A stretch of DNA of 33,744 nt from an uncultured Clostridia bacterium (lineage in GTDB: Bacteria > Bacillota > Clostridia > RUG12999). Position 1 is the first letter of the stretch. Each line of letters starts with the position of its first letter. This document shows positions 1 to 11,668 of this stretch, piece after piece. Location of the stretch: contig CATIYX010000190.1 of the NCBI GenBank assembly GCA_949739095.1, positions 1 through 33,744 on the forward strand, given 5' to 3'. The notes under the pieces are model-generated. The model saw only the letters and a list, made by a program, of their open reading frames with translations. It was not told where the DNA came from and did not search any database. The position numbers and the translations under genes are program-made.

Positions 1-93
1 CCATAATAAATGATGTAATTGAAGTAAAAAAGGGCGTGTATTTGCACAAAACTTAAACAAATACAGTTAAGAGCAACAAAGAACACGCCGAGT
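1..93. repeat. Direct repeat copy A (may extend left of the window); partner at 2784..2876
   Basis: Hand alignment gives 84/93 identical positions with 2784..2876 in the same orientation (59/61 over the first 61 nt). Copy-to-copy distance is 2783 bp. Confidence 0.85.
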
Positions 94-205
94 TCGAGTG
101 ATGAAATGGGATTTTGGTGGGAGTGTTTGAGCGTGTATCCGACGAAAAAGGTGGGTAAGGTTACATTTGGAACAGAACTAAAAACTATGATTTTAAAGGA
201 GAATA

Positions 206-628
206 ATGATGAGTATAAGTGATATGTATAATGTTTATTTACAACAAACAAATGATAGTAGCAATAATGGATATGATGACCATACTGATTATGGAAGAGA
301 TTATGATGACCATTCTGATTGGTGTAGAGATAACCATAGTGATTGGGGAAGAGATTATGATGATTACTCTGACTGGTGTAGAGATTCAGGAAGGGATTAT
401 GATGACCATTCTGACTGGAGTAGAGACTCCCATTCTGATTGGGGATATGGAGATGACCATGATGATTCACATGATGACTATGATGATGAATCACATACAG
501 ATGAAAGCCATGATGACTACGATGACGAATCACATACAGATGAAAAACATGATGATAGTCATGATGATTATGATGATGAGTCACATGATGATGAGTCACA
601 TACGGATTATCATAATGATAGCTATTAA
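206..628 (+). CDS. Acidic His/Tyr/Trp-rich tandem-repeat peptide (140 aa); candidate RiPP precursor
   Basis: AGGAG lies 4-7 nt upstream of ATGATG. A 22-aa ordinary N-terminus is followed by 118 aa using only D,H,Y,S,W,G,R,E,T,C,N,K. Repeats are GRDYDDHSDW(C/S)RD and SHDDYDDESHTDE. The stop is 18 nt before the rSAM gene start. Confidence 0.7.
   Translation: MMSISDMYNVYLQQTNDSSNNGYDDHTDYGRDYDDHSDWCRDNHSDWGRDYDDYSDWCRDSGRDYDDHSDWSRDSHSDWGYGDDHDDSHDDYDDESHTDESHDDYDDESHTDEKHDDSHDDYDDESHDDESHTDYHNDSY
290..607 (+). repeat. In-frame tandem coding repeats inside the precursor gene
   Basis: A Trp/Arg module (about 3 copies of gattatgatgaccattctga(t/c)tgg(t/a)gtagaga-like units) is followed by about 3 copies of a 39-nt unit encoding HDDYDDESHTDE(S/K). 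Confidence 0.8.
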
Positions 629-646
629 TATTTAGGAGAAGTCGGT

Positions 647-1801
647 ATGGGATTGAATTTAAAGAAAATTAACTTACTTGTTATGCCTACGGATATTTGT
701 AACATGAATTGTATATATTGTTTTCACTCTGCTCATCATGAAAAAAGAGGAAAAATGAGTTTTGAAACATTAAAAAGGTTGTATGATATAACATGTTCTG
801 AGTATTCTGAAGTTACTATTATATGGCATGGCGGAGAACCACTGGTAATGGGGCTTGATTTCTATAGTAAAGCAATAGAAATGCAGAAGGATTATAAGGT
901 TATCATAAGAAATCGCATGCAAAGTAATTTGACATTATTATCAGATGATCTGTCTAAATTTCTCTGCAACAATAATATTGGGATAGGAACATCGTTTGAT
1001 GGTTGTACAAATGATTTAACAAGAGGATTTTCTCAAGAAATTCTTGAAGGAAGAAATAAAATTTTAAAAAATGGAAAACAGTGCGGGTTTATAATGGTTG
1101 TTTCAAATAAAAATATTGATAATCTTATTGAAAGTTATCATTTTTTTAAACGTATATGTGCCAATTATACAATTAATATGTATGTTTCCGATGGAAATCA
1201 AAAGGACGATATATTGAAACTAAATCCCAGACAAACAATAGAAAGGATTAAAGAACTATTTGACTATTGGATTTATGATAAAGAGTGTAATATACATATT
1301 GATTATTTTGAAAGGATTATAAATTTTTTGATTACAGGCGAAAAGAGCGTATGTAAATATAATTCTTGTTTGGGGAAATGGGTAGGAATAAGATATAATG
1401 GAGATATTGTACCTTGTAATAGATACTTTCCAGACAAGTATTGTTATGGAAATGTATGGGATTATAATAATTTATCTTCTGCCTTTGAGAGTAATGGTTT
1501 TGAAAAATTATTATTGGATGCTATTACAAGACGCGAAAAGTGCAAACAATGTATTGCTTTTCCTCTTTGTTCGGGAGGATGTAATAATGTGGCTCTTAAT
1601 GAAAATGGTGTTGATGAAAATGGTGGAGATAGTTGTGTGATTTTTAAGGAAATATATAAATATGTTATAGAAAAATCTATTAAGTGTATGAGACTAATCA
1701 AGGAAGATAATAAATATAATCCAATTTTTATTTCTATAATAAAGAAAAGAAATAAATTGGGAAAAGATTTTCATTATGATGTTTATTTAAATATACAGTA
1801 G
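647..1801 (+). CDS. Radical SAM enzyme with C-terminal SPASM domain (probable peptide-modifying maturase)
   Basis: Own RBS (AGGAGAAG). C18-x3-C22-x2-C25 (DICNMNCIYC) and GGEPL are present. SPASM pattern: NGDIVPC (G-x4-C), CKQCIAFPLCSGGC (C-x2-C-x5-C-x3-C), plus a further Cys (DSC). There are 9 Cys in the C-terminal domain. Confidence 0.85.
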   Translation: MGLNLKKINLLVMPTDICNMNCIYCFHSAHHEKRGKMSFETLKRLYDITCSEYSEVTIIWHGGEPLVMGLDFYSKAIEMQKDYKVIIRNRMQSNLTLLSDDLSKFLCNNNIGIGTSFDGCTNDLTRGFSQEILEGRNKILKNGKQCGFIMVVSNKNIDNLIESYHFFKRICANYTINMYVSDGNQKDDILKLNPRQTIERIKELFDYWIYDKECNIHIDYFERIINFLITGEKSVCKYNSCLGKWVGIRYNGDIVPCNRYFPDKYCYGNVWDYNNLSSAFESNGFEKLLLDAITRREKCKQCIAFPLCSGGCNNVALNENGVDENGGDSCVIFKEIYKYVIEKSIKCMRLIKEDNKYNPIFISIIKKRNKLGKDFHYDVYLNIQ

Positions 1802-1930
1802 CGGTAAATATTGTGATTATATACAATGTGATATAGTTGAAAATATAAAAGAAATTAGTGTTAGCCCCCAAATGGGTTGACGGTTATTTTCTGTAGTCCA
1901 TGTGTTAATAATGGTATTTTTATATTAAGG

Positions 1931-1959
1931 TTGACAAAACTAATAAAATCTGATATTAT
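1931..1959 (+). promoter_or_regulatory. Near-consensus sigma-A type promoter for the 1990 gene
   Basis: TTGACA (1931-1936), 17-nt spacer, TATTAT (1954-1959). A GGAGG RBS and ATG at 1990 follow. Confidence 0.7.
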
Positions 1960-1989
1960 CTAATAAAATTAAATAATGGAGGCTGAGAT

Positions 1990-2229
1990 ATGGCGAAAAT
2001 GACAGATAAGCATAAAATGATGGCATATATTTTGAATAAAGAAATGGGCTATACACAGGCTGCAATTGCCCAATTGATGAAAGTGTCGCAATCTACAGTT
2101 GCGAATATGTGTAAAGAGGTTGCTTTTCGGGTTACAATTAGTAATTTGGAAAAGGAGTTACAGGAGGCAAGAAGATTTATTCAGGAAAAGGGATTACTTC
2201 CTTCTGAACCACAGTTATATTTAGAATAA
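1990..2229 (+). CDS. Small helix-turn-helix DNA-binding protein (79 aa)
   Basis: GGAGG RBS 8 nt upstream. HTH-like segment GYTQAAIAQLMKVSQSTVANMCKEV. Consensus promoter immediately upstream. Confidence 0.6.
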   Translation: MAKMTDKHKMMAYILNKEMGYTQAAIAQLMKVSQSTVANMCKEVAFRVTISNLEKELQEARRFIQEKGLLPSEPQLYLE

Positions 2230-2253
2230 AAGGCTATTATTTATAGTTAAATA

Positions 2254-2294
2254 GCAGGTGTTATCATTAGAGATAACAAAATGATAGCACTTGC
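2254..2294 (+). other. Strand-specific RNA hairpin (15-bp stem, 11-nt loop) downstream of the HTH gene; no U-tract
   Basis: gcaggtgttatcatt (2254-2268) pairs with aatgatagcacttgc (2280-2294). There are 13 Watson-Crick pairs plus 2 G.U pairs that exist only in the + strand transcript. An alternative inner hairpin is tgttatc/gataaca (2259-2265/2272-2278). Confidence 0.35.
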
Positions 2295-2502
2295 TCATGT
2301 GGGTAGAATAATATGGATATATCAAATGTATTTAAAAGATTTATATGTTAGGAAATGATTTTTAATACAATTAGTTAATGCTTGATAAGTCCGTATTATT
2401 ATGATTTGAACACAATAAGTATTGCTAATAATGACAGAGAGCATATCGATGCTGATAAATATTTGATAATGTGATAAAGAAATTTTAACGGAGGTATTTG
2501 TT

Positions 2503-2730
2503 ATGGGGAAAAAGAAAAATAGCATTGTTCTATCAACAGCTAGTAATGTGTCGTTAGCTGATCAACTTCTTTCTGGCGAACGCAAAGGGATATTTGAACA
2601 AGGTTATGATAAACTTGGTCGACCTTTTCAAAAGAAACTTGACGATAAAGGGTTTTATACAAAAGAAGAAATTTTAAAAGACGGGACTCCTAAGCTTACA
2701 ATAAAGAAAATAAAATCGAAAAAGGGATAG
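2503..2730 (+). CDS. Small Lys-rich hypothetical protein (75 aa)
   Basis: GGAGG RBS 7-8 nt upstream of ATG. No recognisable motif. Confidence 0.45.
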   Translation: MGKKKNSIVLSTASNVSLADQLLSGERKGIFEQGYDKLGRPFQKKLDDKGFYTKEEILKDGTPKLTIKKIKSKKG

Positions 2731-2783
2731 TGAGTTATTCTAATAAATGCGTGGCAACATTTTGGCAACAGAAAATCAGCAAG

Positions 2784-2876
2784 CCATAATAAATGTTGTA
2801 ATTGAAGTAAAAAAGGGCGTGTATTTGCATAAAACTTAAACAAAAATAGTTAATAGAAACGAAGAGTACGCCGAGT
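2784..2876. repeat. Direct repeat copy B; partner at 1..93
   Basis: See copy A: 84/93 identity. Weak homology with an indel may continue about 10 nt further. Confidence 0.85.
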
Positions 2877-2899
2877 GAGGATCATCAAAAAATTATTTG

Positions 2900-2940
2900 A
2901 ACTGCCCCAATTTGTACAGAAAGTATAAATTGGGGCAGTT
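2900..2940 (-). terminator. Rho-independent terminator for the minus-strand sigma-like gene (perfect 14-bp stem)
   Basis: aactgccccaattt (2900-2913) pairs with aaattggggcagtt (2927-2940), with a 13-nt loop. On the minus strand the hairpin is followed by caaataaTTTTTT. Confidence 0.7.
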
Positions 2941-2962
2941 CATCTGTCTAAGTAAATTTTCT

Positions 2963-3511
2963 TTAATTTTCTTGCAAAATATCTTGAAGCGCTGTTTGAA
3001 GTTCTTTCCGTAATAGCTTCATTCTTGTTTGTGACAGATGCAGAATATCCATAATCTCTTCAAAATCATATCCTTGTTTGATTAACAGATACATGTCGTT
3101 TGCAGTGGCTGAAACCTGATGGGAGACGGCTACGTTCATATCAACATCATCCAGTGCACGTATTGCTTTTGGGTCATCAAAGATATCGTAGGATGAGCCA
3201 TCAACGGTTCGCTGTTCTAAGGAATATATCTCTTGATAGGCAGCAGCATATTGTTTGATACTACTTTCCAAATGATTTTTAACAAAGTTGGTGGAGAATA
3301 TCCTGAATTTGTGTAAGTTTGGCTTATATTGCAGCACTGCCTGCAAAAAACCTTTCTGAGCAATCCCAAGACGGTCTTCTTTGGGAATTGTTCTAGCATA
3401 TTTTCGGTATAGATTCAGCAGTTCACCATGATATATGCGTAAGTTTTTGCATGGAGTCGCAGGAACGCACTGAGAAGCTATCTGTTTTGGAAGCGTTTTG
3501 AATATCTGCAA
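2963..3511 (-). CDS. Small sigma-70-family RNA polymerase sigma factor-like protein (182 aa if the TTG start is used)
   Basis: Region-2-like segment LNLYRKYARTIPKEDRLGIAQKGFLQAVLQY. C-terminal region-4-like HTH is GYDFEEIMDILHLSQTRMKLLRKELQTAL. The only in-frame start is TTG at 3511, with a weak RBS, and it overlaps the upstream ORF by 89 nt. Confidence 0.55.
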   Translation of the reverse strand: MQIFKTLPKQIASQCVPATPCKNLRIYHGELLNLYRKYARTIPKEDRLGIAQKGFLQAVLQYKPNLHKFRIFSTNFVKNHLESSIKQYAAAYQEIYSLEQRTVDGSSYDIFDDPKAIRALDDVDMNVAVSHQVSATANDMYLLIKQGYDFEEIMDILHLSQTRMKLLRKELQTALQDILQEN

Positions 3512-3860
3512 TCAGGTTGTTTTCCGCTTCGTTTATCAAAACTGCAGTCCATATATTGGATTTTGCGTCATAGCGGTTCAATTCAAAGATACAGGGAAAT
3601 GGGATGCCACATTCATACATGCTGGTTGTTAAGGCGGCATTTGACTTTCGGCGGGCAGTAGATATTTCGTCTTTCAATGTACTTTTGCATACATAGAGTT
3701 CCAGACAATTTTTTGCTGCCGCAAGTCCCAAGTTGATATATTGGGGTAATGTCTGTTTGGCAGCATCGCTAAAGTAAAATTTTCCATCATCGTCAAAATA
3801 AATTTCTGATTTCTTAGAATTTACTCCATTTTTAAACCAGATGATAGTTGCATTTTTCAT
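3423..3860 (-). CDS. Hypothetical protein (145 aa from the ATG at 3860)
   Basis: AAGAGG RBS 6 nt upstream of the internal ATG (M12 of the track ORF, which begins at a TTG). No motif recognised. Confidence 0.5.
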   Translation of the reverse strand: MKNATIIWFKNGVNSKKSEIYFDDDGKFYFSDAAKQTLPQYINLGLAAAKNCLELYVCKSTLKDEISTARRKSNAALTTSMYECGIPFPCIFELNRYDAKSNIWTAVLINEAENNLIADIQNASKTDSFSVRSCDSMQKLTHISW

Positions 3861-3920
3861 ATTGTGCCTCTTATAGTTTTGTATATTTTTCAAGGATACT
3901 ATATCACATTATGGAAGGAA

Positions 3921-3950
3921 AGTATAATGAATATGACTGTCATGTCATAT
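3921..3950 (-). promoter_or_regulatory. Candidate promoter with overlapping palindromic operator for the minus-strand gene pair
   Basis: On the minus strand: ATGACA (3948..3943), 16-nt spacer, TATACT (3926..3921). Perfect inverted repeat atatgac-N6-gtcatat at 3931..3950. Confidence 0.3.
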
Positions 3951-4094
3951 TAGACAAAAAATAATAGAACGATTGATTTCATACATCCCATTTTAGGTAA
4001 TATTTTCTCGTAAAACATTTCCTAAGATGCCAAATAATATGTAAGAAAAAGCGGATAGTGTTAAATAGTGCAGGTATGGTTTAAAAATTGATAC

Positions 4095-4123
4095 TTGGCA
4101 CAGAAAGGCGGTTGGAGTACAAT
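4095..4123 (+). promoter_or_regulatory. Candidate promoter of the AraC-type regulator
   Basis: TTGGCA (4095-4100), 17-nt spacer, TACAAT (4118-4123). Confidence 0.35.
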
Positions 4124-4191
4124 AGAATAGGGATATGTATAAGTGATGGTGAGCGTATGGGACAAGGAATTTGGTAGAAGAGGATATATTT

Positions 4192-6372
4192 ATGAAGAGA
4201 AACAGTAAAAAGATAGGTCTTATGTATATATGGATGCTTACTTATATGTGTGCAATGTTGGTGCCAGTTTGTGTTAATTTTATTTCATATAGTAACTTTT
4301 CTACAAAATTTGAGCAGGAAATTCAAAGCTATAATAATTTGTTGACAGAAAAAGTGCGAAGTGAATTTGACGAGCGGATTACCAATTATGTTCATTTTAT
4401 CTTTGCACTGGAAGAGGATGCGAGATTTCGTACCATTGCAGCATATCCGGAAAATATGAATAATAGTCAGTGGGCGGAAGTGAATGATTTTGTGCATGAC
4501 AGATTACGGCAATATGCAGGGCAAATTCCGCAGGATTTTAATATTATTTTAAAAAAATCAGGATTGGTGTTGAAAACGAATTATATTTCCAGCGGGAAAG
4601 TGGCATACCAAGTATGGGGAATGCCTTATGCAAAAACATACTCTGAGTGGATTGCAAAAGTAAACGGCAAATATAAATATGATTTCCAGCTTGATGAGGA
4701 ATATCGTTTTGTCTGCTGCCATACACTGTTTCCCGGAACCGAGTATGAAGTGACGCTTATTGCCACATTGGCGGATAAAGATATTTTGGATTTTGAAAAG
4801 AGTTTTAGCATGGAACAGGGACGTTCTTTGGCAATCTGCGCACGGAGCGAAAAGACAAAAATCGTTTTGGATGGCACAGAGTTGGAATTAAATTTCATGG
4901 AAAACAACAATGTTTCTGGTCATATTGTGCTTCAAAATGCAGATAGGTCAAAATATATTGCAATGTATGCAAAAAGTGCAATTATGGATTTAAACTATGT
5001 TATCATTACAGAAGATACTTTCTTTTACCAAGTGCAACAGCAGATGCGCAATGTTTGGCTGCTGACGATTCTTGCGAGTGTGATAGTTGGCATTGTATTT
5101 GCGATATTGTTTTCCTATTATAATTATGCACCACTACGCAAAATTGTAAAAATGTTTGGAAAACCCAAAGGAAAAAATGAGTATCAATATATCGAAACAC
5201 TGTTGCACCAGATGCAGTATTCACAGGCAAAATCAAAAAACGAAAGGCTGCTTGCGGAATATTTGGTGAGGTCTACCTATACGTCATATATGGAAGAACA
5301 GCTTAAAACAAACTATGGGATTGATGATGAAACCGATTTAATGGTTACCGTTATCTTTTTTCAGGATATTACCAAGTTTATATCAGAGGGGAATGTGGAA
5401 CGCGATTTTGAAGCGATGTGTTTTGCTGTGGAAAATGTGTTTAGCGAAATGATGACACAAGATGGTTGCAGAGTGAATATGACGTCAACAAAAGGCGCTG
5501 TTAATGCCGTGATTTGTGTAGAAGATAAAAAGCTGGTGCATGAACGGTTGGAACAGTTTGTAGAATTTTTGGAAGAACAGCTTCATATTTCGTGTTTTGT
5601 TGTATGTGGAGAATGTCTCAAAGGCGGAAAAAATATTTCGGAGTCCTACCGGCAGGCAATGGGGGTGTTGGATTATATGCTTTTTGTGGATGACAGCGAT
5701 GCTATTGGCATATATGATGTAAAAGAATCTGCATTATATGAAAAATATACGAAAAAAGTGGAACAGAAGATTTTGTTAGCGGTGATTGAAAATGAGCCTG
5801 AAAAGGTGAAGCTAGCGATTGATGAACTGTTCCGCTGTGGTCCTGCCAAACCTAAGCTATCAGAAGTGCAAATGATTCTAAAAACCATCACAGAAGCAAT
5901 TATTGCGAAGCTAAAAGAGCAGGAAAAAAACAGGAAGGTTGATTTTGGTGAATTGCAGGAAGGGATGAGAAGCAGTTCACTAGAGGAATATTATGAACAT
6001 TTGACAGAGTTTATGGATATGCATTACGAAAACGAAGAACATACGCAAGAGAAAAACTTTTTCAGACAAATTCAAGACTATGTAGATCAGAATATTTCCG
6101 ACCCGAATTTGACAAATGGCAAAATTGCAGAGAATTTTAACATCAGCGAGGTCTATTTGTCGCGGTATTTTAAAAGCAATTATTCTGATGGTCTGTTGAA
6201 TTATATCACCAAGAGTCGTGTGGAAATTGCAAAAAAGATTTTAAGAACGACAGAAAAGACAGTAAATGAAATTGCGGAAGAAGCAGGATTTGCAAACAGC
6301 CTGGCATTGCTTCGGGCGTTTAAAAAACATGAAGGCGTCACACCGACACAATTCAGAGAACTGCATAAATAA
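4192..6372 (+). CDS. Transmembrane AraC-family transcriptional regulator (one-component sensor)
   Basis: AGAGGA RBS 7 nt before ATG 4192. N-terminal TM segment (IGLMYIWMLTYMCAMLVPVCVNFI), about 260-aa extracytoplasmic region, second TM (VWLLTILASVIVGIVFAILFSYY). C-terminal AraC double HTH (ISEVYLSRYFKSNYSDGLLNYITKSRVEIAKKIL...NEIAEEAGFANSLALLRAFKKHEGVTPTQFRE). Confidence 0.8.
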   Translation: MKRNSKKIGLMYIWMLTYMCAMLVPVCVNFISYSNFSTKFEQEIQSYNNLLTEKVRSEFDERITNYVHFIFALEEDARFRTIAAYPENMNNSQWAEVNDFVHDRLRQYAGQIPQDFNIILKKSGLVLKTNYISSGKVAYQVWGMPYAKTYSEWIAKVNGKYKYDFQLDEEYRFVCCHTLFPGTEYEVTLIATLADKDILDFEKSFSMEQGRSLAICARSEKTKIVLDGTELELNFMENNNVSGHIVLQNADRSKYIAMYAKSAIMDLNYVIITEDTFFYQVQQQMRNVWLLTILASVIVGIVFAILFSYYNYAPLRKIVKMFGKPKGKNEYQYIETLLHQMQYSQAKSKNERLLAEYLVRSTYTSYMEEQLKTNYGIDDETDLMVTVIFFQDITKFISEGNVERDFEAMCFAVENVFSEMMTQDGCRVNMTSTKGAVNAVICVEDKKLVHERLEQFVEFLEEQLHISCFVVCGECLKGGKNISESYRQAMGVLDYMLFVDDSDAIGIYDVKESALYEKYTKKVEQKILLAVIENEPEKVKLAIDELFRCGPAKPKLSEVQMILKTITEAIIAKLKEQEKNRKVDFGELQEGMRSSSLEEYYEHLTEFMDMHYENEEHTQEKNFFRQIQDYVDQNISDPNLTNGKIAENFNISEVYLSRYFKSNYSDGLLNYITKSRVEIAKKILRTTEKTVNEIAEEAGFANSLALLRAFKKHEGVTPTQFRELHK

Positions 6373-6402
6373 CAGTAAATATACGCGTGAATAGAATCAT
6401 AG

Positions 6403-6458
6403 AAAGAAAGGACTGCATGTTTTCCAACCAAAATGGACATGCGGTCCTTTCTTTTATA
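6403..6458 (+). terminator. Rho-independent terminator after the AraC-type gene
   Basis: 18-bp stem: aaagaaaggactgcatgt (6403-6420) pairs with acatgcggtcctttcttt (6437-6454), with one G.U pair. The U-rich tail is cuuucuuuua. Confidence 0.8.
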
Positions 6459-6577
6459 AGATGAGTAAAAACGAATATCATGTTTAAATATTCCAAATAT
6501 AAAATTCCATAAATCCGCATTTTTCCTGATATTTAGTAAAAGGTTAAATATTGATAGCGCGGGTTAAGGATTGTCAG

Positions 6578-6607
6578 TTGACGGAAAGGGAGAAGTGGAT
6601 TTATACT
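6578..6607 (+). promoter_or_regulatory. Candidate promoter of the first glycan-utilisation operon
   Basis: TTGACG (6578-6583), 18-nt spacer, TATACT (6602-6607), 57 nt upstream of ATG 6664. Direct ATTCCA repeats at 6490-6495 and 6504-6509 lie upstream. Confidence 0.4.
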
Positions 6608-6663
6608 GGAACCATAGGAAGCGACAGATAAGAATACTAGAAAAAGAAATGGAGGAGAATTTT

Positions 6664-8178
6664 ATGAAAAAAAGAATCATCAGCTTTTTACTGCTGTTGG
6701 CGTTACTGTGCAGTTTGAGTACCGTGTGTGCAGAAGAAACAACACAAACAATGACGCCTTTTATCAGCGTAACACACGATGATGGAAATGCATCGCGTAT
6801 CACGTCAACAGACGCTACGCAGCCGGTCTCTTTGGGTAGCAAAGGATATATCAGGCGGCAGATTACCGTGTTGGATCTTTCCCAAATAAATGTGCCGGAG
6901 GGCATGATGTTGGACGAAGTGACCTATTCTTTGTATTGCACAGTGAATTTTGAAGTTGTAGATACAACGCTGGGTATTTATGCACTGGATTTGTCAAGTA
7001 TTGATTTTAGTGCTACAAGGCTGACGCAGGAGAATGTTCCGGAAAATGGAGAACTGATTGCTAGTTTTGCTATGCCGGCACGTCAAAACGATGCGGAACA
7101 ATATAATCAATATATGGATTTTGACTTGAGCGCATATGTGAAAGCGGCGATAGCGGAAGAAAAACAATATGTTGGTTTTGCGGTTGTGCAAACAAGCAGA
7201 TGTCAAAAAGGTGGCATGTATGTTGGTACGACCTATCATGAGAATCCGCCGAAAGTAACATTCGGGTTTCGGGAGCGCGGTGTGAGCGTAAAAAGCCGTA
7301 GTGTTTTAGGCGAAACAGATGGAGTACAGGATATGGAAAAAACGGTTGCCCCATGGATTAGTGTTACGCACGATGATGGAAACGAAGGGCGTTTCACTGA
7401 TACCGATATCAAGCAGCCGATATCTATGGGTAGCAAAGGATATACCAGACAACAGATTACCGTGCTGGATTTATCTACATTAGGCATCCCGGAAGGTACT
7501 TCACTGGAAGAAGCGGTCTACTCACTGTATTGCCGTATCAATTTTGAAGCTGTAGACACTGTACTTGGTGTTTATGAATTGGATCTTTCGGGCGTTGATT
7601 TGAGCGATGGATTAAAATATGCAGATGTTCCGGCGCGGGGGAACCAGATTGCCAGTTTTAACATGCCGGCACGGCAGGGGAGTGAGAGCTATAACAGATA
7701 TATGGATTTTGACTTGACGGAATACATCAATGCAGCCATAGCGGCGGGGAAACAATATGCAGGCTTTGCGATGATACAAACAAGTAGATGCTCAAAAGGC
7801 GGTATGGAAGTTGAAACGATTTATGGTACTAATACGCCCAAGCTGTCTTTGAAATATCAAGAAGTAGTATCAGGAAAAGCAGAACAAAACACTTTGAGCG
7901 AAGGCGAGTTGGAATACAACGTGACGCTACTGAATGAAACAAATGAAACAAAACAAGTGCGACTCATGTGGGCGGAAGTGCAAGGAAATGTTTGTACCAA
8001 AGTGGTTGCGGGAGAAGTCGTTTCATTGGAAGCAAATACGGAACAGACGTTAACTTTAACGCAGGCAGTGACAGATACGAACAGTATAGTACGTTTTTTT
8101 GCCGTAGAGGATATCGGCACAGTGATACGGCCACTCATAAATGAAAAATATGAACTGACGAAAGATGGATGGAAATAG
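6664..8178 (+). CDS. Secreted protein with two tandem ~168-aa homologous domains plus a C-terminal beta-sandwich-like region; possible carbohydrate-binding protein
   Basis: GGAGGAG RBS. Signal peptide MKKRIISFLLLLALLCSLSTVCA. Domain 1 and domain 2 are collinear (ISVTHDDGN...ITVLDLS...YSLYC..NFE.VDT.LG.Y.LDLS...YMDFDL..Y..AAIA..KQY.GFA..QTSRC.KGG). The track start at 6571 is an unsupported TTG extension. Confidence 0.75.
   Translation: MKKRIISFLLLLALLCSLSTVCAEETTQTMTPFISVTHDDGNASRITSTDATQPVSLGSKGYIRRQITVLDLSQINVPEGMMLDEVTYSLYCTVNFEVVDTTLGIYALDLSSIDFSATRLTQENVPENGELIASFAMPARQNDAEQYNQYMDFDLSAYVKAAIAEEKQYVGFAVVQTSRCQKGGMYVGTTYHENPPKVTFGFRERGVSVKSRSVLGETDGVQDMEKTVAPWISVTHDDGNEGRFTDTDIKQPISMGSKGYTRQQITVLDLSTLGIPEGTSLEEAVYSLYCRINFEAVDTVLGVYELDLSGVDLSDGLKYADVPARGNQIASFNMPARQGSESYNRYMDFDLTEYINAAIAAGKQYAGFAMIQTSRCSKGGMEVETIYGTNTPKLSLKYQEVVSGKAEQNTLSEGELEYNVTLLNETNETKQVRLMWAEVQGNVCTKVVAGEVVSLEANTEQTLTLTQAVTDTNSIVRFFAVEDIGTVIRPLINEKYELTKDGWK
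6757..7851 (+). repeat. Internal tandem domain duplication (6757..7263 and 7351..7851)
   Basis: Protein-level alignment by eye of the two segments. Identity is high at conserved blocks and is also visible at the nucleotide level (e.g. gtaacacacgatgatggaaa / gttacgcacgatgatggaaa). Confidence 0.8.
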
Positions 8179-8190
8179 GAGGGAATGGAA

Positions 8191-9774
8191 ATGAAACGAA
8201 TCATATGTTTAGTCCTTGCGCTGTGTATGCTTTGTATGGCGGGATGTACAAATCAGGAAAAACAAAAAGAAGCAGGGAGCACAAATCAGAAGTTGACTTA
8301 TTGGGTGGGAATGAACAGCTCTCAACTTACCACCATATCGAATTATGCAGAACTGCCGATGTATCAAAAATTAAGTGAAGAAACGGGTGTTGAAGTAGAA
8401 TTTATGCATCCGCCGACAGGGCAGGAAGCAGAACAATATAATTTGCTAATTGCCTCCGGCGATTATCCGGACATGATTGAACGGGGCTGGTCGACTGATG
8501 CAGGTGGTCCGGGGAAAGCAGTAGCGGACGGCATTGTTTTACCGCTGGATGATGCGATTAAAAATTATGCGCCGAACTATCAGGAGCTGCTGGAAAATAA
8601 TCACGAATTGAAAAAAGCATTTTCCACAGATGATGGTCAGATTTTTGCCTTCGGTGGTATTACCGTTATGCCGAAACTGAATCCGGGCGGATACTTCATT
8701 CGCAAGGACTGGTTGGAGAAACTCGGTATGGAGGCGCCAAAAAGCATCGAGGATTGGGAAGCCTATTTTGAAGGCTGTAAAACGCAGCTTGGCATAGAAA
8801 CGCCGTTTTCGACAGATTCCTATCGTATGAACTATGCAAAGTTATTCTCGGAAAGCTTTGGTATTGGCAGCAAATACTATATTGACGCAGCGGGAGAAGT
8901 GAAATATGCGCCTATGCAACCGGAATTTAAGGAATATCTCACGCTGATGAACAGTTGGTTTGAAAAAGGATATTTGGACAAAGGAATCTTTTCAAATGAT
9001 GCCAATATGGTAGAATCTAAAATCCTCAATTCCATGACAGGGTCCTTTTACGGCTTTATTGGCAGTACGTTCGGCAAACTTTTAGCTGCAGCGCCGGACG
9101 AACAGTTCCAGTTAATGGCGGTGGAAAGTCCTTCTCTAAAAAGCGGAGAAGCGGCGCAGCTTTACGTTACTAAACCCTATGGATTTGATGCATCGGCAGA
9201 TATGACATATAGTCTGACGAATACCACCGCATTTTCCACGAAAAACAAGGATTTGGAAAAATCGGCGAAATTTATGGACTATTTGTATACAGAAGAAGGA
9301 CGGAAGCTGAAAAACTTTGGTGTGCAGGACGTCAGCTACACCATGGTAGGGGATAAACCAACCTATACGGAAGAAATTTCAAACAATGCAGAAGGACGTT
9401 CCATGAATGAAATGATTGGAAAATATTGCAGAGCAACCTACCCCAATCCTGGGTTTGGCGACGACCCTTATTATATTGAACAGTATTATAAATATCCGCA
9501 GCAGCTAGAGGCTGTAGATATTTTCGCAGCCAATCTGGACCATGCAGTTGCATTCGACATGCCACCGGTGACACCGCTGGCAGAGGAGGTAACAGAAATG
9601 TCTACCCTGCAGGCAACTATTGACACTTATCAAGAAGAAATGTTTGCAAAATTCATCATGGGAACAGAATCGCTTGATAATTTTGATAAATATGTGGCGA
9701 CGCTGAAATCCATGAACATTGACCGCATTTTAGAGATTTATAAAAATGCAATGCAACGTTATGAAGCGCGGTAA
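8191..9774 (+). CDS. ABC transporter extracellular solute-binding lipoprotein (large carbohydrate SBP, LplA/YtcQ-like)
   Basis: AGGAGGG RBS 7 nt before ATG 8191. Lipoprotein signal with lipobox MAGC (MKRIICLVLALCMLCMAGC). About 525 aa. Followed by two permease genes. Confidence 0.85.
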   Translation: MKRIICLVLALCMLCMAGCTNQEKQKEAGSTNQKLTYWVGMNSSQLTTISNYAELPMYQKLSEETGVEVEFMHPPTGQEAEQYNLLIASGDYPDMIERGWSTDAGGPGKAVADGIVLPLDDAIKNYAPNYQELLENNHELKKAFSTDDGQIFAFGGITVMPKLNPGGYFIRKDWLEKLGMEAPKSIEDWEAYFEGCKTQLGIETPFSTDSYRMNYAKLFSESFGIGSKYYIDAAGEVKYAPMQPEFKEYLTLMNSWFEKGYLDKGIFSNDANMVESKILNSMTGSFYGFIGSTFGKLLAAAPDEQFQLMAVESPSLKSGEAAQLYVTKPYGFDASADMTYSLTNTTAFSTKNKDLEKSAKFMDYLYTEEGRKLKNFGVQDVSYTMVGDKPTYTEEISNNAEGRSMNEMIGKYCRATYPNPGFGDDPYYIEQYYKYPQQLEAVDIFAANLDHAVAFDMPPVTPLAEEVTEMSTLQATIDTYQEEMFAKFIMGTESLDNFDKYVATLKSMNIDRILEIYKNAMQRYEAR

Positions 9775-9828
9775 GAGATTGGCTTTGATAAAAGAGCGGT
9801 TTTAGAAAAATGAAAGGAAGAAAAAACT

Positions 9829-10779
9829 GTGTATGAATTGAGAGCAAGGAATGTGCTGCCGAACAAAAAGCACAAAGCGAGCATTTTAAAAGATTTACGG
9901 CGCGATGTATGGATTTATGTGCTTGCTGCGGTAGTGCTTGCGTATTACATATTGTTTCACTATTTACCAATGTATGGAGCAGTCATCGCCTTTAAAGAAT
10001 ATGATGTCGCAAAAGGCATTATGGGAAGTCCATGGGTGGGGCTGAAAAATTTTAAAGATTTTTTTAACGATTACTATTTTGTACGCTTGCTGCGCAACAC
10101 CTTATTGCTCAGTGTATATAACCTGTTGTGGTCTTTTCCGGCGACCATTTTGTTTGCACTGCTGCTCAATGAAATCCGGCAGGAAAAATTCAAAAAGGTG
10201 GTGCAAACCGTCACCTATCTGCCACATTTCATTTCCACCATTGTGGTATGTGGTATGTTGATTGACTTTTTGGCAGATGACGGATTGATTACGCAAATTG
10301 TGAAGTTGTTTGGCGGAGAGGGCAAATATTATCTGAACTATCCACAATATTTCCGCACGATTTATGTTTCCTCCGGTATTTGGCAGAGCATTGGCTGGGG
10401 CAGCATTATTTATCTGGCGGCGCTGTCAGGAATTGACACGGAGTTATATGAAGCGGCAACCATTGATGGCGCGGGGCGGCTGCGACAGACGTGGCACATC
10501 ACATTAACAGGGCTGCTGCCCACCATTGTGACACTGTTGATTTTGGAAATTGGTAAACTCATGAATTTGGGATATGAAAAAATAATATTGCTCTACAACG
10601 GCAATACCTATGAGACAGCGGACGTTATTTCTACCTATGTTTACCGGCTGGGGTTAGGAGCGTCAAGGCGGTATAGCTATACGACGGCAATTGGACTGTT
10701 TAACAGTCTTATTAACTTAATTCTGCTAGTCAGCGCAAACAAAATCAGCAAACGGCTAACGGATAACAGCCTGTGGTAA
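9829..10779 (+). CDS. Carbohydrate ABC transporter permease (LplB/YteP-like)
   Basis: Multiple TM segments. Characteristic N-terminus ...YLPMYGAVIAFKEY...GSPWVGLKNF. EAA loop EAATIDGAGRLRQTWHITL. GTG start. Confidence 0.85.
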   Translation: MYELRARNVLPNKKHKASILKDLRRDVWIYVLAAVVLAYYILFHYLPMYGAVIAFKEYDVAKGIMGSPWVGLKNFKDFFNDYYFVRLLRNTLLLSVYNLLWSFPATILFALLLNEIRQEKFKKVVQTVTYLPHFISTIVVCGMLIDFLADDGLITQIVKLFGGEGKYYLNYPQYFRTIYVSSGIWQSIGWGSIIYLAALSGIDTELYEAATIDGAGRLRQTWHITLTGLLPTIVTLLILEIGKLMNLGYEKIILLYNGNTYETADVISTYVYRLGLGASRRYSYTTAIGLFNSLINLILLVSANKISKRLTDNSLW

Positions 10780-10795
10780 GGGGGAGGAAATCGTC

Positions 10796-11668
10796 ATGAA
10801 GGTGAAAGAAAGTATAGGCAGAAGAATTTTTTGTAAGGTAAATATCTTTATCATGATTGGCATGATAGTGATTACGGCATATCCGCTGATTCATGTATTG
10901 TTTGCATCGCTGAGCGATTCTGGCGCACTGCTGAAACACAGAGGACTGCTGCTGTATCCGGTTGGATTTAATTTGAATGCCTACAGCGTAGTAATCAAAA
11001 ATCCCAATATTACCTCCGGCTATCTCACGACCATTTTTGTTGTGGTAAGCGGAACATTAATTAATTTATTTATGACGTCGATTGGGGCGTTTGTGCTCAG
11101 CAGAAGAACGCTGCGGGGCAGGCATTTCTTGATGGCAGTGATTATTATAACAATGTATGTCAGCGGCGGAATGATTCCCCGGTATCTCATCATCGCCAAC
11201 ACGTTGCATCTAAAAGATAGCTTGCTTTCGCTGATTCTGCCTGGCGCTATCTCAACGTATAACTTGATTATTATGAGGACCAATTTCATGCAAATTCCGC
11301 AGAGCTTAGAGGAAGCGGCACGCATAGACGGCGCGAACGATATTTCTATCTTGTTTAAAGTGATTTTGCCGCTGTCCGTACCGGTGCTTGCTGTGATGAC
11401 ACTGTTCTACGGCGTTTCGCACTGGAATGCGTGGTTTGACGCAATGTTGTTTTTGCGGGAGCGTAGCAAATATCCGTTGCAGCTCATTATGCGTGAAATT
11501 CTTATCAGCAACAGCGCCAGTGCGATGTCTGACAGTGGCACTTATGAGATTGGAGAAAGTATAAAATATGCTACGATTATTTTTACCACGGTTCCGATTC
11601 TTTTGGTTTATCCTTTTATTCAACGGTATTTCGTGAAAGGCATTATGATTGGTGCAATTAAGGGATAA
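10796..11668 (+). CDS. Carbohydrate ABC transporter permease (LplC-like)
   Basis: GGGGGAGG RBS. TM-rich. EAA loop EEAARIDGANDISILFKVILPLS. Confidence 0.85.
   Translation: MKVKESIGRRIFCKVNIFIMIGMIVITAYPLIHVLFASLSDSGALLKHRGLLLYPVGFNLNAYSVVIKNPNITSGYLTTIFVVVSGTLINLFMTSIGAFVLSRRTLRGRHFLMAVIIITMYVSGGMIPRYLIIANTLHLKDSLLSLILPGAISTYNLIIMRTNFMQIPQSLEEAARIDGANDISILFKVILPLSVPVLAVMTLFYGVSHWNAWFDAMLFLRERSKYPLQLIMREILISNSASAMSDSGTYEIGESIKYATIIFTTVPILLVYPFIQRYFVKGIMIGAIKG

Follow-up and report, generated by a model that had tools for sequence, protein, structure and literature searches.

A conserved two-gene cassette pairing His-x-Asp/Asn repeat peptides with a predicted radical SAM/SPASM maturase

Introduction

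Precursors with conserved aromatic1-X2-X3 motifs define the triceptides (PMC11499958). Among the enzymes that act on them, OscB joins Trp-C7 to the Cβ of Asn/Asp and YxdB joins Tyr-C3 to the Cβ of Asp, while HaaB, YhhB, HtkB and MicB join His-C2 to the Cβ of Ala/Arg/Lys/Ser (PMC11002830, PMC11499958, PMC12912966). A common origin of daropeptide maturases and triceptide synthases has been reported (PMC12912966). DynA makes both a Trp-Asn link and a His-N-to-Tyr-Cβ link, and DarE, although closest in sequence to anaerobic sulfatase-maturating enzymes (anSMEs), forms a cyclophane (PMC10288494). Systems of this general kind, in which a SPASM maturase accompanies a repeat-motif peptide and probably forms a ring between an aromatic residue and the residue at +2, are well known. 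Here we analyse two genes at the left end of a 33,744-nucleotide stretch of DNA from an uncultured Clostridia bacterium (the window; contig CATIYX010000190.1 of assembly GCA_949739095.1), where a repetitive peptide rich in Asp and His is encoded directly ahead of a predicted radical S-adenosylmethionine (SAM)/SPASM enzyme.

A first-pass annotation of this DNA had read the two genes as the precursor and the maturase of a RiPP, a peptide that is made on the ribosome and modified after translation. Comparison with relatives bears this reading out. The peptide gene has a ratio of nonsynonymous to synonymous substitution (dN/dS) of 0.084, it stands beside the enzyme gene in 25 loci, its leader is invariant and no alternative substrate is found nearby, so that a genuine precursor/maturase pair of the RiPP type is very probable.

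Results

Linkage of the peptide gene to the enzyme gene

The features of the cassette are as follows (window coordinates, strand, description and basis):

197..201, +, AGGAG, ribosome-binding site of the peptide gene and left edge of the blastn homology with locus L132 (sequence reading, blastn)
206..628, +, precursor peptide gene, 140 aa from the first ATG (139 aa from 209), TAA stop at 626-628 (open reading frame (ORF) list, sister-contig gene calls, dN/dS)
206..271, +, leader, residues 1-22 (MMSISDMYNVYLQQTNDSSNNG), with the family motif M7-x3-Y11-x2-Q14 (alignment of 31 leaders)
272..625, +, core, 118 residues with 15 H-x-D, 10 Y-x-D/R and 4 W-x-R; 50 acidic and 7 basic residues (residue counts, repeat analysis, shuffles)
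633..640, +, AGGAGAAG, ribosome-binding site of the enzyme gene (sequence reading)
647..1801, +, predicted radical SAM/SPASM maturase, 384 aa, without a RiPP recognition element (RRE) (Pfam, AlphaFold2 model, Foldseek)
698..721, +, C18-x3-C22-x2-C25, ligands of the SAM-binding [4Fe-4S] cluster (invariant in the enzyme-family alignment)
1352..1636, +, SPASM half with 8 invariant Cys (236, 241, 257, 299, 302, 308, 312, 330) (alignment; profile alignment to PDB 4K36)
1859..1892, +, terminator-like hairpin with a T run, which would end a two-gene operon (sequence scan)

The two ORFs of the first-pass annotation, the 18-nt gap between them and both ribosome-binding sites were all found again in the sequence. 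The databases hold 311 relatives of the enzyme. The best 120 are 46-100% identical to it and almost all unnamed; the only RefSeq accessions among these 120 are WP_228351816.1 and WP_312519417.1, neither of which is YxdB (WP_226048651.1). The DNA around relatives was taken from reference genomes, from metagenomes and by exact look-up. One or two small peptide genes lie directly 5′ of the enzyme gene in 25 distinct loci (enzymes 34-100% identical), in hosts of several genera that include Blautia, Lachnoanaerobaculum, Ruminococcus, Lachnospiraceae and the Negativicute Anaerospora, and two precursor genes stand in tandem at L004, L052, L122 and L138. When adjoining ORFs were compared all against all at 20 loci, the peptide gene was the sole neighbour common to them, and no sulfatase was conserved.

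DNA homology between the window and L132 is limited to window positions 197..1783, that is, to the two genes (blastn), and the gene after the cassette has a strong promoter of its own at 1931-1959. Given these bounds, the sole shared neighbour and the hairpin at 1859-1892, the pair is, on sequence grounds, a self-contained two-gene cassette. Members of the family are common among Clostridia of the gut, the rumen and digesters, and over 120 enzyme clusters have identities of at least 46%. Relatives of the peptide are far fewer in protein collections: five among 1.84 billion representative proteins and three in a larger clustered collection. As gene callers seldom report the peptide genes, mining for co-occurring peptides and enzymes can easily overlook the family.

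The small ORF as a gene

Comparison with L132, whose enzyme is 80% identical, gave a dS of 1.03 and a dN of 0.086 for the peptide gene; the resulting dN/dS is below that of the enzyme gene (0.127). Two indels separate the peptide genes of the window and L132, one of 14 and one of 13 codons, and each corresponds to a whole repeat unit; the peptide gene of a sister contig differs by one single-codon deletion. The dN/dS and the whole-repeat indels together indicate that the small ORF is a real gene under purifying selection.

The first ATG is 4 nt away from the AGGAG, the second 7 nt. This spacing, the homologues, which begin MSI..., and the gene calls on sister contigs, which start at the second ATG, make it likely that translation begins at position 209 and yields a peptide of 139 aa.

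The GAT/CAT-rich repeats also keep other reading frames open. In the window this is the case for positions 219-635 (+), a Met/Ile/Thr-rich +2 frame, and in relatives for His-rich antisense frames (L001 3280-4065 (-), L002 446-889 (-)). We rejected the ORF at 219..635 as a gene, considering it an artefact of composition, as selection acts on the 206/209 frame. The antisense ORFs of L001 and L002 were likewise rejected as artefacts of composition, and the window has no antisense ORF of at least 40 aa. Gene calling in the wrong frame may explain why precursors are nearly absent from protein databases.

An invariant leader ahead of a variable core

Alignment of 31 N-termini shows an invariant Tyr and an invariant Gln, with Leu/Met usually four residues ahead of the Tyr (L/M-x3-Y-x2-Q), and this leader motif is kept across the precursors of enzymes 27-100% identical to that of the window. 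Peptide length varies with enzyme identity, from 100-204 residues at 52-84% to 42-58 at 41-52% and 39-75 at 34-37%. Comparison of these sequences shows a core free to vary from ~25 to 180 residues, provided that the His-x-Asp/Asn triplets stay.

This pattern bears on an explanation in which the peptide is real but is not the substrate, acting instead as a metal-buffering or delivery partner or as a DNA-mimic-like acidic protein while the enzyme works elsewhere. Such a role would suit the extreme composition of the peptide (50 acidic residues and 15 His in 118), the lack of a conserved protease or exporter, the location of several relatives in mobile elements beside RadC, DUF932, YqaJ and RecT, and one 35-37% identical relative that is coupled to the acidic N-terminus of a >1000-aa protein instead of a peptide. 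However, precursors recognised by an enzyme are marked by just such an invariant leader joined to a hypervariable core, the tandem precursor genes of L004, L052, L122 and L138 suit substrates better than cofactors, and no other conserved candidate substrate was found at the compared loci. We consider this explanation very unlikely.

Other precursor arrangements were observed in more distant relatives. At L059-L069, L072-L074 and L078, enzymes 27-33% identical accompany ~100-aa peptides that share the L-x3-Y-x2-Q leader but whose C-terminal half is hydrophobic, rich in Cys and ends NGFNGVWTYWPF; these look like a second unannotated precursor class, occurring mainly in metagenomes of termite gut, rumen and digesters. 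At L003 3282-3953 (Variimorphobacter saccharofermentans MD1, a cultured bacterium whose enzyme is 61% identical) and L119 5291-5977 (a related metagenome-assembled genome) one ORF of 224-228 aa, without a Pfam or PHROG match, joins the precursor in frame to a conserved N-terminal domain of ~110 residues. There is no Met ahead of the leader motif at L119, where the precursor may be a fusion protein. The enzymes of L047-L054 and L102 (for example L049 2980-7123), 35-37% identical, have no leader peptide upstream. Their stop codon overlaps the start of a >1000-aa protein with an acidic aromatic N-terminus (MKMSNNFNEYNCWDEWDEVDYGDTWDEYDNYTEWDEDDSPDHSD...) and no Pfam match, which may be a protein rather than a peptide substrate. 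Finally, an unannotated ~185-aa protein is encoded directly 3′ of the enzyme in the 34-37% tier (L056 4092-4649, with equivalents in L057, L058 and L077), the only extra conserved neighbour in any tier.

His-x-Asp/Asn as the family signature

Motif statistics were drawn from 27 cores in three identity tiers (enzymes 34-84%), which carry 3-21 motifs each. Asp or Asn stands at +2 in 214 of 234 His against 78 expected, an enrichment of 2.5-3.5x that is seen in long peptides (152/162 against 61 expected) and in short ones (62/72 against 17.5 expected), and comparable enrichment was not seen for other residues or offsets. In the most distant tier Asn largely replaces Asp (HVN, HDN, HPN, HNN), a swap that preserves Cβ chemistry. 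The first-pass annotation had proposed a general aromatic-x-(Asp/Arg) register, and this part does not hold across the family. Asp/Asn at +2 of Tyr is enriched in long peptides only (83/119), short peptides being at expectation (10/37). Trp-x-Arg is confined to the DYDDHSDW(C/G/S)RD unit and does not occur in the 204-aa peptide beside an 84%-identical enzyme. Since these two patterns are limited to subgroups while the His rule spans the tiers, the sequence comparison identifies His-x-Asp/Asn, and not aromatic-x-(Asp/Arg), as the signature of the family.

Every figure given earlier for the window core was reproduced. Its 118 residues comprise D 44, S 16, H 15, Y 12, R 6, E 6, G 5, W 5, T 4, C 2, N 2 and K 1, and A, F, I, L, M, P, Q and V are all missing. 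H-x-D accounts for 15/15 His, W-x-R for 4/5 Trp and Y-x-D/R for 10/12 Tyr, a total of 29 triplets, and 15 H-x-D were reached in 0/5000 shuffles of the core. Nevertheless, the DNA of the core consists of repeats in tandem (periods 30/54/42 and 39 nt), which encode first DYDDHSDW(C/G/S)RD units and then HDDYDDESHTDE units, so the 29 triplets are copies and not independent events. The evidence beyond chance for the pattern comes from the sequences of the unrelated short homologues rather than from the count inside the window peptide. Long peptides contain at least 15 His, their net charge is about -43, and no signal peptide was found on them.

The repeat unit also bears on whether the enzyme could link Cys to Asp or to some other residue through a thioether at the C-R-D of WCRD, in the manner of sactipeptides or of ranthipeptides (PapB). 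Both Cys of the window core sit two residues ahead of an Asp, the enzyme has weak matches to PapB, SCIFF and CteB-type models (49-85 bits), and CteB is a structural neighbour (TM 0.71). Against this, Cys is missing from 6/27 cores (L132, L135, L138b, L052a, L052b, L058), among them the core beside the 80%-identical enzyme, which has WSR where the window has WCR, and most other cores have one or two. Indeed, C, G or S is accepted at that repeat position. The thioether explanation is hence highly improbable.

The enzyme

The motifs attributed to the enzyme in the first-pass annotation are present (C18/C22/C25, GGEP 62-65, G252-x4-C257 and C299-x2-C302-x5-C308-x3-C312). In Pfam, residues 13-166 match Radical_SAM (PF04055, 50.8 bits, cut-off 29.5) and residues 242-302 match SPASM (PF13186, 24.5 bits, cut-off 21.5); TIGR04085 scores 45.4 (27). 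There is no N-terminal extension, and with no space ahead of the radical SAM core the enzyme has no RRE, as had been noted. C18/C22/C25 and G62-G63-E64-P65 are invariant in the enzyme-family alignment, and the eight invariant Cys of the SPASM half should be enough for two auxiliary [4Fe-4S] clusters.

No curated family model has its cut-off reached by the window enzyme (NCBIfam June 2026). Partial matches, with equivalog cut-offs in brackets, are led by the anSME model TIGR03942 at 144.6 bits (349.45), followed by DynA at 139 (450), TIGR04083 at 132 (300), NF010321 at 118.3 (441), DarW at 105 (650), DarE at 95 (650), GrrM/OscB at 86, PapB at 85 (340), AmcB at 73, YhhB at 65 and HxsB at 48.4 (370). 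The cut-offs of the XyeB, GrrM/OscB, FxsB, YhhB and AmcB models are 310-450. More distant family members match DynA best, at 163-165 bits. As all curated matches are far below the cut-offs, none of them predicts the chemistry. A PADLOC scan of the cassette gave generic viperin-level radical SAM similarity alone, and neither gene is covered by a Pfam, NCBIfam, PADLOC or PHROGs family beyond the generic radical SAM/SPASM domains.

The nearest PDB sequence match is anSMEcpe (E 1e-30 by single sequence and 2e-51 by family profile). It also heads the Foldseek neighbours of the AlphaFold2 model (pLDDT 87, pTM 0.87) at TM 0.80, ahead of ChlB (0.75) and CteB (0.71). These similarities raise the question of whether the enzyme is an anSME that makes formylglycine on a sulfatase, the upstream ORF being incidental. 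Of the NCBIfam models TIGR03942 scores highest for the enzyme, and a heparinase II/III-like lyase is encoded in a polysaccharide-utilisation locus of the window. The TIGR03942 score is however 145 bits against a cut-off of 349. In a profile alignment to PDB 4K36, the P-C-D segment of anSMEs, whose Asp we take to be D277 of anSMEcpe, the proposed catalytic base in formylglycine formation, is replaced by P256-C257-N258-R259, and P-C-N-R is invariant in 25 family members. The large ORFs of the 33.7-kb window encode no sulfatase domain, the conserved neighbour in 25 loci is the peptide and not a sulfatase, and the peptide has no C/S-x-P/A-x-R motif. An anSME function can thus be given next to no credence. 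W60-H61 and R295-R296 are conserved in the family and differ in anSME; this is indicative only, since the anSMEcpe sequence was taken from the HMMER alignment, in which columns besides P-C-D are indicative.

A proposed mechanism

With Asp/Asn at +2 of nearly every His, the cores show the aromatic1-X2-X3 pattern of triceptide precursors (H-x-D/N in 214/234 His). We think it probable that H-x-D/N is the site of enzyme action. That the product is specifically a three-residue ring from His to Asp/Asn, a proposal by analogy with the systems above, is held tentatively and at somewhat short of an even chance. It is unlikely that the Tyr and Trp triplets of the window repeat unit are used as well.

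In the proposed reaction the enzyme would bind the leader directly on its catalytic/SPASM body. We suggest this because the enzyme lacks an RRE and because there is a precedent in ChlB, likewise RRE-less, which was crystallised with the leader of its precursor. SAM would be cleaved at the C18/C22/C25 cluster to give a 5′-deoxyadenosyl radical, which would take the Cβ hydrogen from the Asp/Asn of each H-x-D/N triplet. The resulting carbon radical would bond to the His imidazole two positions upstream, with the two auxiliary clusters taking up the electron, so that each event would yield a three-residue His cyclophane with a loss of 2 Da. Repeated along the core, which has 15 H-x-D sites in the window peptide, the reaction would give a rigidified, hyper-acidic His/Asp polypeptide, for which metal binding is the simplest guess from composition.

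Taken to its full extent, this would mean that the family makes protein-sized, hyper-acidic poly-cyclophanes with 15-20+ His-to-Asp/Asn Cβ rings per 100-200-residue chain, from a two-gene RRE-less cassette often found on mobile elements, and that the product is a pre-organised metal chelator or polyanionic mimic in or on the cell, not a secreted antibiotic. We offer this as a possible but speculative picture.

Several observations weigh against the ring and its product as proposed. The enzyme is nearer anSME and DynA than any curated triceptide synthase model (41-104 bits), and no report of a His-to-Asp Cβ link was found in the triceptide literature searched. H-x-D is a generic metal-binding pattern, and its conservation could reflect the function of the product and not a modification site. 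Position -2 of His likewise shows an excess of Asp/Asn (1.6-1.8x), so the register could run the opposite way. Finally, the first-pass annotation had seen no protease, exporter or immunity gene, and indeed none is conserved among the 20 compared loci, which is unusual for a secreted natural product.

The same pair with the same H-x-D/N recognition could also carry out a different radical chemistry, such as a His N-to-Cβ link as made by DynA, conversion of Asp to aminomalonate or to a decarboxylated residue, Cα epimerisation, or an ether or other link to a following aromatic residue (H-x-D-Y/W). At 139-165 bits, DynA ranks first or close to first among the curated matches, and this enzyme forms a His N-to-Tyr Cβ link (PMC10288494). 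The cyclophane-forming relative AmcB scores 73-104 bits, and Tyr or Trp follows ~40% of H-x-D triplets in long peptides and ~20% in short ones. Ma et al. are reported to have described, in 2021, aminomalonate formation by a radical SAM enzyme, which may be AmcB. On the other hand, the +3 aromatic is not conserved family-wide, unlike the +2 Asp/Asn, the curated matches stay far below their cut-offs, and the characterised triceptide synthases in the surveyed literature all form aromatic C-to-Cβ links. We regard such a departure from ring closure between His and Asp/Asn Cβ as rather doubtful.

Surroundings of the cassette

Upstream, no riboswitch or significant structure was found in the 205 nt ahead of the peptide gene (Rfam, RNA folding), nor any promoter-like site 5′ of position 206 (consensus scan). 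Four independent assemblies with an identical enzyme (L125-L128) stop ~40-80 nt from the left end of the window (window 1-81). A multi-copy element probably lies just 5′ of the window, which would explain why the left flank of the cassette is systematically unassembled. Within the cassette, the peptide and enzyme ORFs share a reading frame (offset 441 nt) and are parted only by the TAA and six codons. Readthrough of this one stop would fuse substrate to enzyme; the same-frame layout is probably due to chance.

Window 1990-3893 may be the remnant of a mobile element. It encodes a 79-aa helix-turn-helix protein, with a strong extended -10 promoter and weak matches to sigma-70 region 4 and terminase small subunit, and three more ORFs (75, 182 and 156 aa) without a family match. 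A PHROGs scan of the neighbouring small genes gave helix-turn-helix matches alone. The remainder, 4171-32237, is a polysaccharide-utilisation region with genes for an AraC-type regulator, CBM96 and SLH-domain proteins, a heparinase II/III-like lyase with an F5/8 type C domain, a TetR regulator, a 2-hydroxyacid dehydrogenase and two ABC sugar importers.

At other loci the settings differ. L132 carries, adjoining its cassette at 46-3485, genes for a methyltransferase-like protein (224 aa), a B12-binding radical SAM enzyme (513 aa) and an RRE-type radical SAM/SPASM enzyme (406 aa). Inclusion of the latter two in the cluster of the window is unsupported, as homology to the window starts at 197. 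L122, L136, L137 and L042 (about 2000-11000) have cassettes with two precursors (51 and 43 aa) in a mobile-element-like block ordered HTH_17, relaxase, HTH_3 repressor, cassette, RadC, DUF932, YqaJ, RecT and DUF5688, and the Anaerospora cassette (L135) adjoins serine recombinases. These mobile-element settings fit the cassette-like boundaries of homology, and say nothing definite on function.

Discussion

If the chemistry is confirmed, a ring between His and Asp/Asn would join the enzyme-made peptide macrocycles, and the poly-cyclophane picture would add to an unreported crosslink pairing an unusually high number of rings. Confirmation would show, too, that a leader as short as L-x3-Y-x2-Q is read by an anSME-like enzyme that has no RRE. 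With two genes and natural substrates of 39-60 residues, such as the 50-aa peptide of L043, besides the one of 140 residues, the system is unusually tractable. As a guess, a His/Asp-rich product could bear on metal handling in anaerobes.

Among known systems, the His-Xaa-Ser system (HxsA with HxsB/HxsC) combines a His-x-residue repeat peptide with radical SAM/SPASM maturases of uncharacterised chemistry, according to its TIGRFAMs description. The cassette differs in having a His-x-Asp repeat and one enzyme rather than two plus HxsD, and HxsB gives only 48-64 bits (cut-off 370), mostly over the N-terminus. In ranthipeptides of the PapB/freyrasin type, the Cβ of Asp is the site of bond formation and motifs are repeated. 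Contrary to that system, which needs Cys, Cys is dispensable here, and PapB scores 85 bits against 340.

The family resembles anSMEcpe (PDB 4K36-4K39) in length, in the lack of an RRE and in a full SPASM domain with two auxiliary clusters, and abstraction of a Cβ hydrogen from a peptide residue would be expected in both. It differs in its partner, a leader-bearing peptide instead of a sulfatase, in a family score under the cut-off, in P-C-N-R for P-C-D and, indicatively, in the family-specific W60-H61 and R295-R296.

Dynobactin and darobactin precursors are short, with a single core, and come from Gram-negative hosts, and DarE has an N-terminal extension. The cassettes described here are found instead in Clostridia and Negativicutes, with 3-21 motifs per core, and their scores are far under the cut-offs of 450 and 650. 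They share with the DynA/DarE type the best or near-best curated match (DynA 139-165 bits, DarW/DarE 75-105 bits) and an anSME-like sequence, the characterised enzymes forming aromatic-to-Cβ links that include Trp-Asn and a three-residue His-x-Tyr ring (PMC10288494).

The triceptide synthases (YxdB, OscB/GrrM, HaaB, HtkB, YhhB, MicB, ChlB) likewise combine a SPASM enzyme with a repeated aromatic-x-x precursor, and some of their precursors are long and repetitive. ChlB in particular has the same compact RRE-less architecture (TM 0.75), with a sequence match only over its N-terminal ~125 residues. In contrast, the XyeB, GrrM/OscB, FxsB, YhhB and AmcB models give 41-104 bits against cut-offs of 310-450, the cores of the present family are far more acidic, and tailoring, protease and transport genes are not conserved beside it. 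The His-x-Asp/Asn pairing itself was not found in the surveyed triceptide literature. A literature search found neither the peptide strings of the window nor a description of such a pair of His-/Asp-rich peptide and SPASM enzyme, and the peptide/enzyme family looks undescribed; YxdB, the Tyr-Asp triceptide synthase, was compared by its published chemistry only. The first-pass annotation had put the system forward as a candidate undescribed RiPP. The term undescribed stands for the family and for the His/Asp pairing, for which there is no curated family and no literature match. It does not extend to the kind of chemistry, because rings from an aromatic residue to the Cβ of Asp/Asn and rings from His-C2 to a Cβ are each already known separately (PMC11002830, PMC11499958).

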